Below, one piece after another: positions 20,883 to 62,444 of a stretch of DNA of 64,000 nucleotides. The position numbers and the translations under genes were made by a program. Under the pieces are notes generated by a model. That model saw nothing but the letters and a program-made list of their open reading frames with translations, did no database searches and was not told the origin of the DNA. The DNA is from Thermoanaerobaculia bacterium (GTDB taxonomy: Bacteria; Acidobacteriota; Thermoanaerobaculia; Multivoradales; UBA5704), in assembly GCA_035996875.1 (NCBI GenBank), contig DASYJD010000013.1:114-64113 (forward strand), given 5' to 3'. Each line of letters opens with the position of its first letter. The first letter of the stretch is position 1.

Positions 20883-20972
20883 ATGGCGGAGAGGGTGGGA
20901 TTCGAACCCACGGACCGGTTGCCCGGTCAACGGTTTTCGAGACCGTCCCATTCGACCGCTCTGGCACCTCTC
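20883..20972 (-). tRNA. tRNA-Ser (anticodon CGA), long variable arm
   Basis: Reverse complement GGAGAGGTGCCAGAGCGGTCGAATGG...GGTTCGAATCCCACCCTCTCCGCCA. Anticodon loop CT-CGA-AA, T-loop GGTTCGAATCC, encoded CCA. Confidence 0.8.
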
Positions 20973-20994
20973 CGGTAATTTGTCTGTCGAGATC

Positions 20995-21084
20995 GTGGCG
21001 GAGAGAGTGGGATTCGAACCCACGGTAGAGTTTCCCCTACACACGCTTTCCAAGCGTGCTCCTTAAGCCACTCGGACATCTCTC
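20995..21084 (-). tRNA. tRNA-Ser (anticodon GGA), long variable arm
   Basis: Reverse complement GGAGAGATGTCCGAGTGGCTTAAGGAGCACGCTTGGAAAGCGTG...GGTTCGAATCCCACTCTCTCCGCCA. Anticodon loop TT-GGA-AA. Confidence 0.8.
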
Positions 21085-21108
21085 CCGATCCTGCAAAGAA
21101 CCTTGTCG

Positions 21109-23686: not shown

Positions 23687-23932
23687 TCTATGGAATGCCT
23701 GCCCGCCCCCGCCTGTTGTTCCAGATCCCGGACTCCGGGCTACGTTCTTTACTTCCCTGATCCCACGACGTAGCATGAGCAGCCTTAGGACAGTGGCCCA
23801 CGAAGGGTTCGGGTCCTGTGCATCGGCCGATACCGAACCTCGTCAGGCCCGGAAGGGAGCAGCGATAAGGTATCCGGACGAGTGCCGCAGATTCACCGGA
23901 ACCCTTCGTTGACCACTGCCGGCAAAACACCC

Positions 23933-27907: not shown

Positions 27908-28339
27908 ATGGCCACAGCGCATGACATTGCTGCTTACATCCTGCAACAGAGGGGTGAGCTGACGGCGATGAAGCTTCAGAAACTGGTGTACTACTCCCAG
28001 GCGTGGTCTCTGGTCTGGGATGAAGAGCCTCTGTTTCCCGAGGAGATCCAGGCATGGACGAACGGACCGGTGGTGCCGGAGCTCTATAAGGCCCATCGCG
28101 GTCTGTTCCGGGTTCGTGACTGGCCGCAGGGCAAACCCGGATGCCTGACCAAGGGGCAACGCAAGACGGTCGACGCGGTGCTCGACTACTACGGCGACAA
28201 GACCTCTCAGTGGCTGAGCGACTTGACCCATCGGGAAGCCCCTTGGCTTGAAGCCCGAAAGGGGCTTGATCCCGGTGATCCCGGTCGCCGAATCATCACC
28301 CACGCCTCCATGGCCGAGTACTACAGCAATCCGTACTAG
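27908..28339 (+). CDS. Panacea-domain (DUF4065, SocA-like) putative antitoxin, copy 1
   Basis: KLQKLVYYSQAWSLVWDEEPLF...WTNGPVVPELY matches the DUF4065/Panacea core. GAGGG RBS. A paralog lies at 61528-61959. Confidence 0.75.
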   Translation: MATAHDIAAYILQQRGELTAMKLQKLVYYSQAWSLVWDEEPLFPEEIQAWTNGPVVPELYKAHRGLFRVRDWPQGKPGCLTKGQRKTVDAVLDYYGDKTSQWLSDLTHREAPWLEARKGLDPGDPGRRIITHASMAEYYSNPY

Positions 28340-28488
28340 ACCTCGTGGGTAAACGATCCCGCCATAAGTCATCCCAACCTGCCGACAGGATTCCTCAGAG
28401 AGCCCAGGTTCCCGAGCAGCAGCGGGTTCCCAGGGCTGTCGCCGGCACGAGCTATCACAGCCTCCGGCCCTCCTGGCGGGTTGGAAGG

Positions 28489-28809
28489 ATGGAGATGGTC
28501 GACCCCTTTGGCTGGCACAGGGTCGACGGTCCCACGATCCTGTACGTCCGGTCGCGATTGGCTCACTTCGAGTCGATGACCTGGACGGAGATCCTGGTCC
28601 AGGCGAAGAAGCAGAACCACTCCATCAGGGTTGAGGACATCTGCTCCACTGCTCAGCAGCGACTCGAAGCCCTTGGTCTGCTGCTCGACGACGTGGTTTC
28701 TCTGCGCTTATCGGGGAGGGAGAGAGTCTACGGTTACCTAGAGAACGGCGTTCTCATCCTTCTCTGGTGGGACCCGCTACACCAGATCTGTCCTTCCCTG
28801 AGGGAGTAG
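28489..28809 (+). CDS. putative toxin partner of Panacea antitoxin, divergent RelE/ParE-like fold, copy 1
   Basis: C-terminal SLRLSGRERVYGYLENGVLILLWWDPLH follows the RelE/ParE/YoeB hallmark (LRxSGxYRhhY...hhhL.hhHR). Conserved with its paralog at 62082-62444. GGAAGG RBS. An alternative upstream GTG at 28345 is possible. Confidence 0.5.
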   Translation: MEMVDPFGWHRVDGPTILYVRSRLAHFESMTWTEILVQAKKQNHSIRVEDICSTAQQRLEALGLLLDDVVSLRLSGRERVYGYLENGVLILLWWDPLHQICPSLRE

Positions 28810-28828: not shown

Positions 28829-29404
28829 ATGCTGCCCGCCACCCGTCTCAAGATTGCCTTCATCGGCTCCCACGGGGTGGGAAAGACAACGCTGTGCTAC
28901 GGCCTGGCGGCGCGGCTCAAGCGGCGGGACGTGGGGGTCGAGGTGGTGCATGAGGTGGCGCGGCGGTGTCCGCTGCCGATCAACCAGGAGACGTCGATCG
29001 CCGCCCAGTCGTGGATCCTGCACTCGCAGATCGCCGAGGAGCTGGTGGCCCAGGCCCGCTATCCGGTGGTGGTCTGCGACCGTAGCGTGCTCGACAATTA
29101 CGTCTATCTCCTTCTCGCCGCCGGCCGGCAGGAGGGGCCTGAGGGGCTGGTCGAGTACTGGCTCCGGGGCTATGACCTGCTGGTCCACGTCCCCATTGTC
29201 GAGCAACCCAGCCCGGACGGCGTGCGCTCGGCCGACCCCGGGTTCCAGCGCGCCGTGGAAGAGAAGCTCTGCCGTGAGCTGATCGAGCGCAGCCTCGTCG
29301 CCCTCCATCTCGATCCCGCGGCGAGGCCGGATTGGCTCGACGCGGTGGAGCGGACCGTCTGGGAGCGCCTGCGCCCCGCCCAGCTCAATCTCCCATCCTT
29401 ATAG
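28829..29404 (+). CDS. P-loop NTPase (AAA_28 / NadR-kinase-like ATPase)
   Basis: IAFIGSHGVGKTTL Walker A at the N-terminus. 191 aa. Confidence 0.55.
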   Translation: MLPATRLKIAFIGSHGVGKTTLCYGLAARLKRRDVGVEVVHEVARRCPLPINQETSIAAQSWILHSQIAEELVAQARYPVVVCDRSVLDNYVYLLLAAGRQEGPEGLVEYWLRGYDLLVHVPIVEQPSPDGVRSADPGFQRAVEEKLCRELIERSLVALHLDPAARPDWLDAVERTVWERLRPAQLNLPSL

Positions 29405-31127: not shown

Positions 31128-32171
31128 CTAAAGCGCCGCCAGCACCTTCCCTACCAGCGACGACAGCGGCAACGCCGCGCGGCCGGCGGCGTCGAACCAG
31201 CCGGCGGCCCACCCTTCCCGCACCTCCCCGCCCCAGGAGAGGGATGCCGGGTGAACATCCACCTCCAGGTCGCGATAGGTGATGCCGTGGCGAACGCCGG
31301 CGGCCCGGGGACCCAAAGTCCAATGGCCGCCGTAGCGAGCGGAGAGAGCGGCCTCGGGCGCCTCCTCTTCCGGCACGCCATTCACCTCTACGGTCACCCA
31401 AGGCAGCTCCCAGGTGCCGGCCAAAAGGGCACTGTCCTCCGGACGGCGAAAGAGGAGCACGCCGCCGCCCCTCTCCACCACCGCCACCGCGAGGCGGTGG
31501 CGCTCCCCCTCCCGCTTCACCCGGGCTCTCGGATACCGCTCGGGATCGCCCTCGCGCGCCGCGCGGCAACCGGGCCGGAGGGGACAGAGGAGACATTTGG
31601 GCCGGCGCGGCGAGCAGAGAGTCGCCCCCAGCTCCATGAGTGCCTGGTTGCTATCGCCCGGCCGGCTCAGATCCAGCAGCTCGGCCGCCGCGGCGAGGAG
31701 CTGCCGGCGGGCGCCGCTGGACTTCGGGTCCGCCTCCAGGGCGAGACAACGAGAGAGGACTCGCTCGACGTTGCCGTCCATCACGGGAGTCGCCACGCCG
31801 AAAGCGATGCTCGCCACCGCCGCCGCCGTATAGGCGCCAATCCCCGGGAGGGCCAGGAGGCCTTCGAGGGTGGCGGGGAAGGACCCCAGCTCCGTGATCT
31901 TCTGCGCTGCGGCGTGAAGTTGCCGCGCCCGCCGGTAGTAGCCGAGGCCGGACCACAGGGTCAGAACCTCCTCGATGCCGGCCCGCGCCAGATCCTCGAC
32001 GGTGGGAAATCTTTCCAGGAAGCGATTGTAGAAAGGAAGAACGGCCTCGACCCGGGTCTGCTGGAGCATCACCTCGGAGAGCCAGATGGCGTAGGGGTCG
32101 TGGGTCCGGCGCCAGGGCAGGTCCCGGCGGTGAAGGTCGAACCAGGCGAGAAGATCCTCGGAGCGCCGCAC
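31128..32171 (-). CDS. mutY: A/G-specific adenine DNA glycosylase MutY
   Basis: HhH-GPD region (LPGIGAYTAAAVASIAFG), 4Fe-4S cluster cysteines (CSPRRPKCLLCPLRPGC), and C-terminal NUDIX-like domain. Confidence 0.85.
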   Translation of the reverse strand: MRRSEDLLAWFDLHRRDLPWRRTHDPYAIWLSEVMLQQTRVEAVLPFYNRFLERFPTVEDLARAGIEEVLTLWSGLGYYRRARQLHAAAQKITELGSFPATLEGLLALPGIGAYTAAAVASIAFGVATPVMDGNVERVLSRCLALEADPKSSGARRQLLAAAAELLDLSRPGDSNQALMELGATLCSPRRPKCLLCPLRPGCRAAREGDPERYPRARVKREGERHRLAVAVVERGGGVLLFRRPEDSALLAGTWELPWVTVEVNGVPEEEAPEAALSARYGGHWTLGPRAAGVRHGITYRDLEVDVHPASLSWGGEVREGWAAGWFDAAGRAALPLSSLVGKVLAAL

Positions 32172-32328
32172 CGCGTCATTCTAACCGCGCCGCCCTGGCA
32201 TGAGGGCCAAAATGACTGTCAAATTGGCAGAGGCCCTAAATGAAAACAGCTCCCGACTTTCGTCGGGAGCCGATATTCAGGGGGGGAGACCCCATCTCTC
32301 CGGTGGGCTTTGTGGCTGTACCCCTGTG

Positions 32329-32735
32329 CTTAGGGGAATCAGGTAGGGTTCAAAGAGGGTGAGATCTTACGATCTCGTTATCAGGTAGGACAAAGTTGGT
32401 TGGTGTGGCGCCTCCCCCTCGTTGTGTCCTGTCTTCCCTTGTTGCAACAGCCGTGCCTGGTTTCCCATTCCGCCTTCCGCTCTCCACTCCCATTCTCCAA
32501 TCAACGGCTCCCTAAAAAAACGAAGCCCCCGGGAAGGGGGCTCAGGGGGGAGGTTCCTCGGGTCTGGATGGGAATCTTGGTTGGATCTACCCCTGTCCAG
32601 GGGATGAGGAAGGGCTTTCAAAGACGAGATCGCTTAGGATCTCGGTTGAAGGATGGATGAAACGTTTGGCTGGATGGAATCTCCCCCTCGTCTACGTCGT
32701 TATTGAGTGCCCTACCCCTGTGCAATCTCTGTGCC
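32329..32735. repeat. duplicated ~120-bp structured intergenic element (2 full copies plus a partial one), candidate sRNA/REP-like family
   Basis: Copies begin at ~32329, ~32588 and ~32713 with TACCCCTGT(G/C)...(A)GGGG. Each has an internal palindrome GAGATC...GATCTC and ends ...TCCCCCTCGT. Confidence 0.35.
32511..32541 (-). terminator. rho-independent terminator for a minus-strand transcript
   Basis: Minus strand reads GCCCCCTTCCCGGGGGC hairpin then TTCGTTTTTTT. No protein gene reads into it, which suggests a ncRNA or antisense transcript. Confidence 0.5.
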
Positions 32736-32900
32736 CAGATGACTCACGGTCTTAGAAGCCCGTTGAAATATGGTTTTTCGCCCATCCGGGGCGGTTCAGG
32801 GCCGGCTTTCCCAGGGTCGCGGCCTTTTCGTTCGTACAAATGCGCTCGTCTGTATTTGGCATTTCTACAGAGTTCGACGGGCGGGGAGGGACGATAGAGC

Positions 32901-61527: not shown

Positions 61528-61959
61528 ATGACGACTGTACATAACGTAGCGGCCTACATCCTGCAAAAGCAGGGTGAAATGACCGCTATGAAGCTCCAGA
61601 AGCTCGTCTATTACTCTCAAGCCTGGTCGCTCGTCTGGGATGAGGAGCCTCTGTTTGCCGAACGGGTCGAAGCCTGGGCCAATGGTCCCGTGGTTCCCGA
61701 TCTCTACCGTGAGCACAAAGGGCAGTTCAAGGTCGGTTCATGGCCGCGAGGAAACCCCGAGGCCTTGTCGGCAGTCCATCGCGAGACGATCGACTCCGTG
61801 CTTGGCTACTACGGAGACAAGGCTTCCCAGTGGCTCAGCGACCTGACGCACCGGGAAGATCCCTGGCTCGACGCCCGCCGCGGCCTTGCGCCCGGCGAAA
61901 GAGGCTCGACGGAGATCTCCCATGCCGCGATGGCAGAATATTACGGGAGCCTGACGTAG
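61528..61959 (+). CDS. Panacea-domain (DUF4065, SocA-like) putative antitoxin, copy 2
   Basis: KLQKLVYYSQAWSLVWDEEPLF...WANGPVVPDLY. Roughly 80% nucleotide and 75% amino-acid identity to copy 1 in the core. Confidence 0.75.
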   Translation: MTTVHNVAAYILQKQGEMTAMKLQKLVYYSQAWSLVWDEEPLFAERVEAWANGPVVPDLYREHKGQFKVGSWPRGNPEALSAVHRETIDSVLGYYGDKASQWLSDLTHREDPWLDARRGLAPGERGSTEISHAAMAEYYGSLT

Positions 61960-61970
61960 GCCCCCCGTTC

Positions 61971-62444
61971 ATGCCGAAGCAGCCGCGACAGAGAAGCTCT
62001 CCCTCCAGTCTCAAGCAGCCGGTCGCAGGGAAGGCCGTAAAGTCCTCCAAGGAGCCCAGGATCACCGCTGGGGAAGATCCCATGCGAGAGAGTCCCGCGT
62101 GGCACATCTCGACCCTGGAGACAGTGGACCCCTTCGGCTGGCACCGGATCGACACCGAGAAGCTGGGAGAGGTCCGCAGGAAGATCGGCGACTTCGAATC
62201 TATGACCTGGAATGAGATTCTCGTCGTCGCGAGTCACAGAAACCACGCGGTCTCCGTGGACCGGCTCTGCAAGGCCGCGCAGGATCGGTTGGAAGAGATC
62301 GGCCAGGGAGATGTCGACGAATTGGTCTCGCTACGGCTCTCCGGCCCGGAACGAATCTGGGGAATCCGCGCCGGCCGCATTTTGAAGATCCTGTGGTGGG
62401 ACCCGGAGCACGCGGTCTGCCCCGCCCTATTGAGACATACCTGA
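61971..62444 (+). CDS. putative toxin partner of Panacea antitoxin, divergent RelE/ParE-like fold, copy 2
   Basis: VDPFGWHRID...FESMTWNEILV...SLRLSGPERIWGIRAGRILKILWWDPEH is conserved with copy 1. A Lys/Pro-rich N-terminal extension is present only if the ATG at 61971 is used. The alternative ATG at 62082 gives a 120-aa product. Confidence 0.5.
   Translation: MPKQPRQRSSPSSLKQPVAGKAVKSSKEPRITAGEDPMRESPAWHISTLETVDPFGWHRIDTEKLGEVRRKIGDFESMTWNEILVVASHRNHAVSVDRLCKAAQDRLEEIGQGDVDELVSLRLSGPERIWGIRAGRILKILWWDPEHAVCPALLRHT

Follow-up and report, generated by a model that had tools for sequence, protein, structure and literature searches.

The window analyzed here, which is the whole 64,000-nucleotide stretch of Thermoanaerobaculia DNA under study, carries two copies of a two-gene cassette in which a stand-alone Panacea gene (panA) is followed by a gene encoding a small protein, hereafter referred to as the partner. 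We read this cassette as a type II PanAT toxin-antitoxin module consisting of a RelE-superfamily RNase toxin and an inhibiting PanA, and we put the probability of this reading at about 0.6. The cassette is an annotation fix and not a new kind of system, because the partner belongs to a large, already catalogued and uncharacterized group of Panacea partners.

In copy 1, panA (27908..28339, + strand) encodes a 143-aa stand-alone Panacea protein (DUF4065/SocA-like) that is a predicted antitoxin or regulator. The partner gene (28345..28809, + strand; stop codon at 28807-28809) encodes 154 aa including the GTG start, and its product is predicted to be an RNase of the RelE/YafQ-like type (BECR fold) and, putatively, a PanT toxin. 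Between the TAG stop codon of panA (28337-28339) and this GTG lies a junction of 5 nt (28340..28344, + strand). The sequence-only reading had given the partner ~106 aa and a position 150 bp downstream of panA; both values have to be replaced, since the gene really starts at GTG 28345. The public annotation of copy 1 likewise gives 106 aa and lacks the N-terminal tail. Across phyla, the protein sequence encoded by the 48 codons that precede ATG 28489 is conserved (motifs K-x-P, K-x-P, and P-S-W-R), and codons 1-48 of the partner show a dN/dS of 0.14 at a dS of 0.61 relative to the closest relative. Moreover, part of the first beta-strand in the confident structure model is encoded upstream of ATG 28489, and an in-frame start occurs 2-17 nt past the PanA stop in almost all of the homologous junctions (~45 printed). 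The motifs GWHRVD, FESMTW, and LLWWDPLH, pointed out earlier, are indeed present in the ORF ending at 28809, on the same strand as panA. The description of the partner as basic holds for the full protein (pI 9.8), owing only to its N-terminal tail (pI 12), and does not hold for the 106-aa part, which is acidic (pI 5.8). Longer family members (184-251 aa) were considered as possible fusions and rejected; no Pfam domain was found in them, and their ORFs appear to have been called too long.

The second copy of the pair, also anticipated, was located at 61528-61959 and 61971-62444. Its panA (61528..61959, + strand; HEV7503973.1) encodes 143 aa and was found by tblastn together with NCBIfam and PHROG matches; its partner gene (61971..62444, + strand) encodes 157 aa from an ATG 11 nt past the panA stop. 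In the databases, partner copy 2 has 157 aa according to JGI and a shortened 120 aa according to NCBI, and public records label the partner ‘hypothetical’. The start codon bears directly on whether such pairs are recognized. Kurata et al. (2022) counted genes as a pair when they lay on the same strand and ≤100 nt apart. With the corrected starts, copy 1 has a same-strand gap of 5 nt and copy 2 one of 11 nt, so that both lie within this spacing; with the NCBI start, the gap of copy 1 becomes 149 nt and the pair falls outside it. Start calls that are too short inflate the gap to ~150 nt, so pipelines requiring ≤100 nt can miss pairs, and the rule of Kurata et al. would miss pairs of the window type because the partner start is mis-annotated. 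There is no obvious Shine-Dalgarno sequence in the copy 1 junction, which makes translational coupling likely. A sequence scan revealed no operator-like palindrome or sigma-70 promoter upstream of the cassette, and scans for promoters, terminators, and inverted repeats upstream of both copies returned nothing.

The SocA/Panacea identity proposed for the ORF at 27908-28339 was borne out by Pfam, where PanA copy 1 matched PF13274 (SocA_Panacea) over residues 23-113 (E = 8e-18; 65.8 bits vs a gathering cut-off of 25.7). It also matched phrog_1281 (E = 3e-35), and PanA copy 2 gave SocA-model and phrog_1281 matches like those of copy 1. No HTH or other extra domain was found in PanA copy 1. The corresponding NCBI record, HEV7503941.1, reads ‘type II toxin-antitoxin system antitoxin SocA domain-containing protein’. 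The dN/dS of panA is 0.10 against its homolog at locus L007, and the two copies of the cassette share 67% identity in PanA and 43% in the partner (whole length, tail included). The two genes are genuine and conserved, and strong purifying selection acts on both.

Copy 1 lies between genes for a class-III aminotransferase and an AAA_28 ATPase (Pfam), as the sequence-only reading had it, and no mobile-element gene was found near the cassette among the inspected ORFs (~24-33 kb and 59.5-64 kb of the window), again in line with that reading. The AAA_28 ATPase was considered as a third component and dropped, since it is conserved in one closely related genome only. The GC content of the cassette is 60% vs 68-70% in the flanks, and its GC3 is 0.72-0.79 vs 0.83-0.91. 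Each copy is syntenic in one related genome (for copy 2, that of locus L049). The cassette is thus compositionally foreign yet inherited vertically within this Thermoanaerobaculia lineage.

The partner family comprises 256 confirmed genomic loci and 1836 clusters at 50% identity, and its features are therefore far beyond chance. PanA lies directly upstream of the partner in 75 of 80 species-level genomes, which belong to Acidobacteriota, Cyanobacteria, Nitrospirales, Chloroflexi, and other phyla; this conserved bicistron upholds both the earlier claim of a toxin-antitoxin-like cassette and the expectation that homologous loci keep the DUF4065-partner pairing. There is no conserved third gene, the largest cluster of neighbors being seen in 6 of the 80 loci. 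The flanks differ between loci, and integrases or transposases adjoin some of them. At three loci the partner stands by itself in one way or another: in L036 it is intact beside a PanA with an in-frame stop; in L041 it is apparently intact with no adjacent PanA; and in L057 it is apparently intact, with an inverted PanA ~750 nt upstream and none adjacent on the same strand. A partner whose PanA is broken or absent is awkward for a toxin that is always lethal. A tblastn search of 50,697 phage records with the partner gave one weak match, and a broader profile search aimed at an NsnC sequence returned short proteins only among the matches listed.

The structure model divides the partner into two parts. 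Residues 1-41 (28345..28467, + strand) form the tail, which is disordered (pLDDT 54-69), very basic, and rich in Lys and Pro; in the columns of a 203-sequence alignment, K15-x-P17, P23, and K27-x-P29 are conserved. We propose that this tail may serve as a PanA-docking or RNA-binding element. Residues 42-150 (28468..28794, + strand) form the folded core, with defined secondary structure and pLDDT >90. Its elements in the AlphaFold2 (AF2) model are strands 43-53 and 56-59, helices 62-75 and 80-86, strand 92-95, helix 101-109, and strands 116-123, 126-133, and 136-143, followed by WWDPxH. Four core residues stand out as a candidate active site by column conservation: E76 (codon 28570-28572; conserved in 200 of 203 sequences), H92 (28618-28620; 195 of 203), R127 (28723-28725; 203 of 203), and H146 (28780-28782; 199 of 200), all on the + strand.

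The C-terminal strand signature of RelE/ParE/YoeB that had been read from the sequence stood in part. Three antiparallel strands are indeed seen in the AF2 model for the segment SLRLSG...LLWWDPLH, but neither Pfam nor Foldseek supplied a significant match to go with them. A Foldseek search of the PDB with the model, from which a RelE/ParE-like fold had been expected, gave no significant match (best E 0.7), and a Foldseek search of viral structures gave nothing. None of the Pfam models for RelE, ParE, HigB, YoeB, or YafQ matched any of 34 family members at E ≤ 1; sequence searches of the PDB with the partner found no match; and hhalign of the partner family against E. coli YafQ gave a probability of 0.1%. 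RelE, HigB, YoeB, and YafQ rank above ParE. We consider the evidence for a RelE-like fold of the partner moderate.

Profile comparisons link the partner to three other sets of proteins. First to be named is NsnC of Menshen (NsnABC), a validated antiphage system (NAR 2025, gkaf357; PMC12065111), whose C-terminal PB-BECR1 effector, a predicted RNase, was presented as a BECR RNase domain of the YafQ-like kind, with an H-R-H triad (PMC12065111). The PADLOC NsnC model PDLC03891 matches 29 of 34 members of the window family (best E 5e-7), with partner residues 71-148 aligned to model positions 207-280; in both window copies it runs to position 280 of 284, i.e., in the C-terminal part of the profile. 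The NCBIfam model NF046006 (‘MAG6450 family protein’) matches 33 of 34 members at E ≤ 0.1 (best E 4e-7), but all scores listed are below its curated cut-off of 40, including those of the window copies (17.2 and 21.7 bits). In Mycoplasma agalactiae, MAG6450 adjoins MAG6440, which is annotated ‘prophage protein ps3’; we take this to be an older name for DUF4065 proteins, and MAG6440/MAG6450 are probably the same kind of pair. The remaining link is to orf161 of Salmonella phage vB_SemP_Emek, whose family aligns with the partner family by hhalign (probability 96.2%, E = 2e-9, 110 columns). This protein is a member of T1 and is labelled a predicted ‘mRNase’ (PMC8832971, Dataset S1), T1 being the first and apparently the largest partner cluster in the table of Kurata et al. 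(2022; PNAS 119:e2102212119; PMC8832971). We identified orf161 with T1 entry YP_006560566, and the overlap of -62 nt agrees with Dataset S1. The suggestion that the partner represents an undescribed PanT family therefore finds no support, since it is homologous to a protein listed in T1. The members of the Emek-type subfamily also match the PADLOC NsnC model (18 of 18; best E 3.5e-9). The window subfamily is tied to T1 by homology to this listed member, and its placement there by the clustering of Kurata et al. would be tentative: for Dulcicalothrix PCC 7102, the one shared genome examined, Dataset S1 gives an accession that differs from the locus found here.

On the type II reading, the partner core would be a divergent RelE/YafQ-type (BECR superfamily) endoribonuclease that cleaves RNA, probably via H92, R127, and H146 with E76, and so stops translation. 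The stand-alone PanA encoded upstream would bind this RNase and hold it inactive, the two proteins would be translated as a coupled bicistron across the 5-nt gap, and the disordered basic tail may act as the handle for PanA or as an RNA/ribosome contact. Support for this reading comes from the Panacea domain of the first gene, the long form of the partner and its confidently modeled core, the profile links to NsnC and Emek orf161, the conserved H92, R127, and H146, the linkage to PanA, the variable flanks with integrases or transposases at some loci, and the foreign base composition; published work also has PanA in complexes with its toxins and a stand-alone Panacea neutralizing directly (PMC8832971, PMC10440598). 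Counting against it are the lack of toxicity in E. coli of the two tested T1 relatives, whose subfamily, however, lacks counterparts of E76, R127, and H146, the lack of significant Foldseek and of Pfam or PDB sequence matches, the loci where PanA is broken or absent, and the absence of an operator-like palindrome or sigma-70 promoter upstream.

Some of these same observations fit a latent defense effector, i.e., an RNase that is inactive or harmless alone and is switched on only by PanA, once PanA has sensed phage infection or another trigger. The module would then be an abortive-infection system with the effector domain of Menshen NsnC. Neither of the two T1 proteins that were tested, one from E. 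coli MOD1 and one from phage Emek, was toxic when expressed alone in E. coli (PMC8832971); the window and Emek-type subfamilies share homology with the effector domain of NsnC, which comes from a validated antiphage system (PMC12065111); and Ernits et al. favor a sensory role for Panacea. The loci where an intact partner stands next to a PanA that is broken or missing point the same way, as do the strong purifying selection on the cassette and its stable vertical inheritance at two chromosomal sites. However, no defense genes were identified in the examined flanks and no gene family recurs beside the pair, and the choice of host may account for the absence of toxicity in E. coli, the tested proteins being only ~15-20% identical to the window family. 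We regard this explanation as possible but doubtful. The T1 results would also suit a module that is no toxin system at all, such as a conserved two-gene housekeeping or regulatory unit (e.g., an RNA-binding protein and its partner) with a merely toxin-antitoxin-like architecture. Both copies sit among housekeeping genes, each syntenic in one related genome, and their dN/dS is like that expected of core genes. Against this, the pair is patchy across phyla, occurs in variable contexts that adjoin integrases or transposases at some loci, is found in prophages, and has a base composition foreign to the genome, and its conserved residues of catalytic type point to an enzyme; such a module is unlikely.

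Two further explanations keep the toxin and change how it is controlled or what it attacks. Instead of inhibiting the partner by binding, PanA could be a proteolytic adaptor that delivers it to ClpXP, as in the type VI SocAB system; the tail would then be a degron or the place where the adaptor docks. In favor of this, SocA and Panacea are names of one domain, the NCBIfam SocA model covers the N-terminal 50 residues of PanA (E = 4e-11), and the disordered tail of the partner is conserved and under purifying selection; nevertheless, the SocA equivalog NF047745 scores the two copies at 42.9 and 44.2 bits, far below its cut-off of 190, the partner is unrelated to SocB, and the PanAT pairs that Kurata et al. 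studied gave stable complexes and were assigned to type II (PMC8832971), which makes this explanation quite improbable. Alternatively, the partner could have the RelE/ParE fold and act as a non-nuclease that poisons DNA gyrase or binds another target. The higher ranking of RelE, HigB, YoeB, and YafQ, the invariant or near-invariant His/Arg/His/Glu set, which suits an RNase site, and the homology to the NsnC domain, itself a predicted RNase, all speak against a ParE-like protein, and we consider it very improbable.

The type II reading leaves the known picture of PanAT systems unchanged, and the toxicity of the window partner is putative. What the cassette adds concerns a very large family (>1800 clusters at 50% identity) that has no Pfam model: the profile links join the window family, the T1 partners, the MAG6450 family, and the NsnC effector into one predicted RNase domain family, and H92, R127, H146, and E76 offer a catalytic hypothesis for what is apparently the most common, uncharacterized Panacea partner. 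More speculatively, the Panacea-held partner and the NsnC C-terminal effector may be one RNase module; the partner would be a latent effector, not an addiction toxin with constant toxicity, and the tail would be the handle of Panacea and Panacea the infection sensor. If so, this would explain why the T1 partners scored as non-toxic in E. coli, and it would mean that many pairs have been missed, with partner start codons systematically called too far downstream.

Among known systems, SocAB of Caulobacter (type VI) resembles the window pair in that a SocA/Panacea antitoxin is encoded first, but its toxin is the DnaN-binding SocB, to which the partner is unrelated. The likeness to RelE, YafQ, HigB, and YoeB lies in the three-stranded C-terminal sheet, the conserved basic and His residues on the strands, the conserved His near the C-terminus (as in the ...DYH of HigB and H87 of YafQ), and the position of the gene downstream of its antitoxin. 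The partner differs from RelE/YafQ toxins in having an N-terminal hairpin, an inserted strand and helix, and a 40-residue tail, and its antitoxin is a Panacea protein instead of RelB, DinJ, HigA, or YefM. With NsnC it shares the effector domain, which in the window cassette is free-standing and Panacea-paired; the H-R-H triad of NsnC would be paralleled by the candidate residues H92, R127, and H146. However, the partner lacks the inPIN N-terminal domain of NsnC, having only the disordered tail, and the pair lacks the Menshen neighbors NsnA (DUF262/ParB) and NsnB (ABC ATPase). In T1 PanAT systems, exemplified by Emek orf149/orf161 and E. coli MOD1 WP_089622957/WP_077635758 (PMC8832971), the gene order is that of the window, a stand-alone Panacea gene directly followed by the partner gene, and the partners are proteins of ~140-160 aa in which a basic N-terminal tail precedes the same core (P-x-[FW]-S/R... 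TW.EI... H... [SA]xR... G... LW[WL]D). The identity between the Emek-type and window subfamilies is only ~15-20%, and in the hhalign alignment E76, R127, and H146 have no E, R, or H counterpart in the Emek-type subfamily, which has invariant residues of its own, namely K136, R142, Y159, and H161.

The pairing of a Panacea protein with a small downstream protein, proposed as a toxin-antitoxin cassette by the sequence-only reading, is real and occurs twice in the window. In copy 1, panA (27908-28339, plus strand) is a 143-aa ORF whose product carries, as claimed, a Panacea/DUF4065 domain, here as a stand-alone protein; it scores 65.8 bits with Pfam PF13274 (E 8e-18), whose cut-off is 25.7, and also matches phrog_1281 (E 3e-35). 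Its N-terminal part matches the NCBIfam SocA model at 42.9 bits, far under the equivalog threshold of 190; NCBI names this protein of a Thermoanaerobaculia MAG 'type II toxin-antitoxin system antitoxin SocA domain-containing protein' (HEV7503941.1). The second cassette, 33.6 kb away, comprises panA (61528-61959) and a 157-aa partner (61971-62444), both on the plus strand. Between the copies PanA is far better kept (67% identity) than the partner (43%). Toxins of type II systems are usually better conserved than their antitoxins, and these paralogues show the reverse.

The partner had been read as a protein of about 106 aa beginning about 150 bp downstream of panA, which is also the NCBI call (HEV7503942.1, 106 aa, start ATG 28489, 149 nt from panA). 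Five lines of evidence instead put the start of the copy 1 gene (28345-28809, plus strand, in another frame than panA) at GTG 28345, 5 nt past the panA stop; the gene runs to the stop at 28807-28809 and encodes 154 aa. The two window partners align along the whole 151 residues, the part upstream of ATG 28489 included. This part is kept in homologues of several phyla: it opens with a basic M-G-K-K-P-K, contains K-x-P motifs and includes an almost invariant P42-x-W44 (P-S-W-R). In the comparison with the closest relative (L007, a related Thermoanaerobaculia locus), codons 1-48 have a dN/dS of 0.14 at a dS of 0.61, and the core a dN/dS of 0.06. The first beta-strand of the AlphaFold2 model covers residues 43-53 and so begins ahead of the ATG 28489 start, with pLDDT >90 from about residue 41. 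Finally, almost all of the ~45 homologous junctions inspected have an ATG, GTG or TTG in frame at 2-17 nt past the PanA stop, and the conserved region begins at a median of ~15 nt after that stop across 75 paired loci. The protein had also been called basic, which holds for the full 154 aa (pI 9.8) through its tail (pI 12), the 106-aa part being acidic (pI 5.8). The copy 2 partner is called as 157 aa by JGI and 120 aa by NCBI; the NCBI calls omit 28345-28488 and 61971-62081. With the NCBI start, the copy 1 gap of ~150 nt exceeds the 100-nt limit of the published PanAT survey, so pairs of this kind may be systematically under-counted there.

The partner family comprises 1836 clusters at 50% identity at E <= 1e-3 (995 at E <= 1e-10), with 256 confirmed loci in species-representative genomes. 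Pairing was counted in the best 80 of these 256 loci, from Acidobacteriota, Cyanobacteria, Nitrospirales, Chloroflexi, Verrucomicrobia, delta-proteobacteria and others. A same-strand Panacea ORF lies directly upstream of the partner in 75 of the 80, bearing out the expectation that the pairing is conserved at homologous loci. In the remaining five, the partner is truncated or IS-disrupted (L033, L065, L082), PanA is inverted (L057) or the partner is an orphan near a RelE-like pair (L041). The pair also recurs in unrelated metagenomic contexts, two of them beside integrases. No third gene is conserved among the neighbours of the best 80, the largest neighbour cluster being present at just 6 of these loci.

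Several loci deserve a separate description. At L082 (1696-2938), a transposase-like ORF pair is inserted between the PanA gene and a partner truncated at its C-terminus, and at L057 (1740-2976) an unrelated 176-aa ORF separates the inverted PanA from the partner; both are decay or rearrangement of the cassette. L041 (2221-3423) and L065 (2860-3381) carry partner copies without any Panacea gene and with WWDA(G/E)H in place of the nearly invariant WWDPxH, and the L041 partner is just 3' of a separate small antitoxin-like ORF and a RelE/ParE-like ORF (...GYRLVYQVESPTNVLLLTIYSKSDR...). At L036 (2477-2971; Dulcicalothrix desertica PCC 7102, NZ_RSCL01000009.1), the partner is intact (WP_127082463.1) and the Panacea gene has an in-frame stop in place of a conserved Trp (QAWSLV*DEEPLF). 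Either the gene has become a pseudogene or the sequence contains an error; a genuine stop would mean that the partner is tolerated in the absence of its PanA.

Gene order around both window cassettes is matched in related Thermoanaerobaculia: recR, aminotransferase, panA, partner, AAA_28, TPR for copy 1 (in L007), and FAD oxidoreductase, YceI, panA, partner for copy 2 (in L049). Selection on both genes is strongly purifying (dN/dS 0.10 for PanA, 0.08 for the partner). Cassette GC is 60-61% versus 68-70% in the flanks, and GC3 is 0.72-0.79 versus 0.83-0.91, which fits an old horizontal acquisition. Scans upstream of both copies detected no promoter, terminator or operator-like palindrome. The AAA_28-family P-loop NTPase gene (28829-29404) begins 19 nt past the partner stop; it was rejected as a module component, since it is syntenic in L007 only and missing from all other partner loci. 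Its PADLOC matches are marginal (LeoA, E 0.0065; VakA, E 0.037).

Elsewhere in the window, the dnaX, ybaB and recR genes are directly preceded by a bacterial small SRP RNA (23807-23905; Rfam RF00169, 70 bits). Because the longest mechanical ORF for dnaX (GTG 23882) reaches into the 3' end of this RNA, the genuine start codon of dnaX probably lies further 3'. On the minus strand, two tRNA genes of 87 nt each lie side by side (20887-21085; RF00005, 56-57 bits each), a length that suggests long-variable-arm tRNAs. The ~730 nt at 32172-32900, between a long minus-strand ORF (31128-32171) and a Zn-protease-family gene (PF05618), hold only short mechanical ORFs (<=86 aa); Rfam gave no match there, even with the threshold relaxed to E <= 0.1.

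The partner matched no Pfam family, and no PDB relative was found by sequence. Its AlphaFold2 model (34 sequences; mean pLDDT 83, core >90) has the element order b-b-a-a-b-a-b-b-b, and the C-terminal signature SLRLSG/RERVYGYLEN/GVLILLWW forms the last three strands, as had been anticipated. In fold comparison, the RelE/ParE superfamily accounts for all of the first 6 hits and for 15 of the first 22, including HigB, M. tuberculosis RelE1, P. horikoshii RelE, YoeB, HigB2, YafQ, E. coli RelE and ParE; Foldseek gave no significant hit, with RelE, YoeB and HigB recurring in its list. The predicted RelE/ParE-like fold is therefore only moderately supported by structure comparison, as the best assignment available for the model. 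Independent sequence evidence strengthens it. The PADLOC model of NsnC, a Menshen antiphage protein with a predicted C-terminal RNase effector domain and a published H-R-H triad, is matched by 29 of 34 partner-family members (best E 5e-7), and both window partners match its C-terminal third, up to profile position 280 of 284. Over 203 family members, H92 (195/203), R127 (203/203) and H146 (199/200; copy 1 numbering) are conserved, and E76, W80, R106, G130 and the W-W-D-P motif are also invariant or nearly so. We infer that H92, R127 and H146 correspond to the NsnC/YafQ triad.

Kurata et al. (2022) defined PanAT systems with 88 partner clusters; T1 heads their Dataset S1, is the largest judging by table extent, and ranges over Chloroflexi, Mollicutes, Acidobacteria, Cyanobacteria, Proteobacteria and phages (PMC8832971). 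We linked the partner to T1 via the pair of Salmonella phage Emek, with an alignment built for the orf161 family. In Emek, a Panacea domain is encoded by orf149 (E 8e-25), and the 62-nt overlap of orf161 with this gene equals the Dataset S1 value. Profile-profile comparison of the two families gave 96.2% probability and E 2e-9 over 110 columns spanning the whole core. NsnC is matched by 18/18 orf161-family members (best E 3.5e-9), and NCBIfam NF046006 (the MAG6450 family) is matched, under its cut-off, by 33 of 34 partner-family members; in M. agalactiae, MAG6450 adjoins a gene annotated 'prophage protein ps3'. Given these matches, the partner is not the undescribed PanT family once suspected; by profile similarity, it appears to be a divergent subfamily (~15-20% identity) of a superfamily whose members are already on record as Panacea partners.

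The toxin-antitoxin and RelE-like reading is reasonable; the claim of novelty is not upheld. We put the probability of a type II PanAT module with a RelE/YafQ-type RNase partner at about 0.6. In such a module, panA and the partner would share a transcript, with their translation probably coupled across the 5-nt gap, which has no clear SD, and the partner, a predicted RNase, would arrest translation; a ParE-like non-nuclease is less likely, as is a role outside toxin-antitoxin function. The stand-alone Panacea protein would neutralise the partner by binding it directly, a mode shown for other stand-alone PanAs (PMC10440598), and a SocA-like proteolytic adaptor logic is less likely. The disordered, basic, conserved tail may be what Panacea grips, Ernits et al. 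having predicted Panacea contacting the unstructured N-terminus of another PanT (PMC10440598), or it may contact RNA or the ribosome.

The main rival, a latent effector activated via PanA upon phage infection, seems unlikely. It draws on partners that are intact where PanA is broken or absent, on the domain common to the partner and Menshen, and on the non-toxicity of T1 relatives: the two tested members, from E. coli MOD1 and phage Emek, are labelled 'mRNase' and 'not toxic' (PMC8832971). In the hhalign alignment, however, the Emek-type T1 subfamily has no equivalents of partner E76, R127 and H146 and has its own invariant K136, R142, Y159 and H161; its non-toxicity therefore carries over poorly to the partner family. 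Along with a corrected gene structure and a catalytic-residue hypothesis, the analysis links T1-type Panacea partners, the MAG6450 family and the NsnC effector domain.
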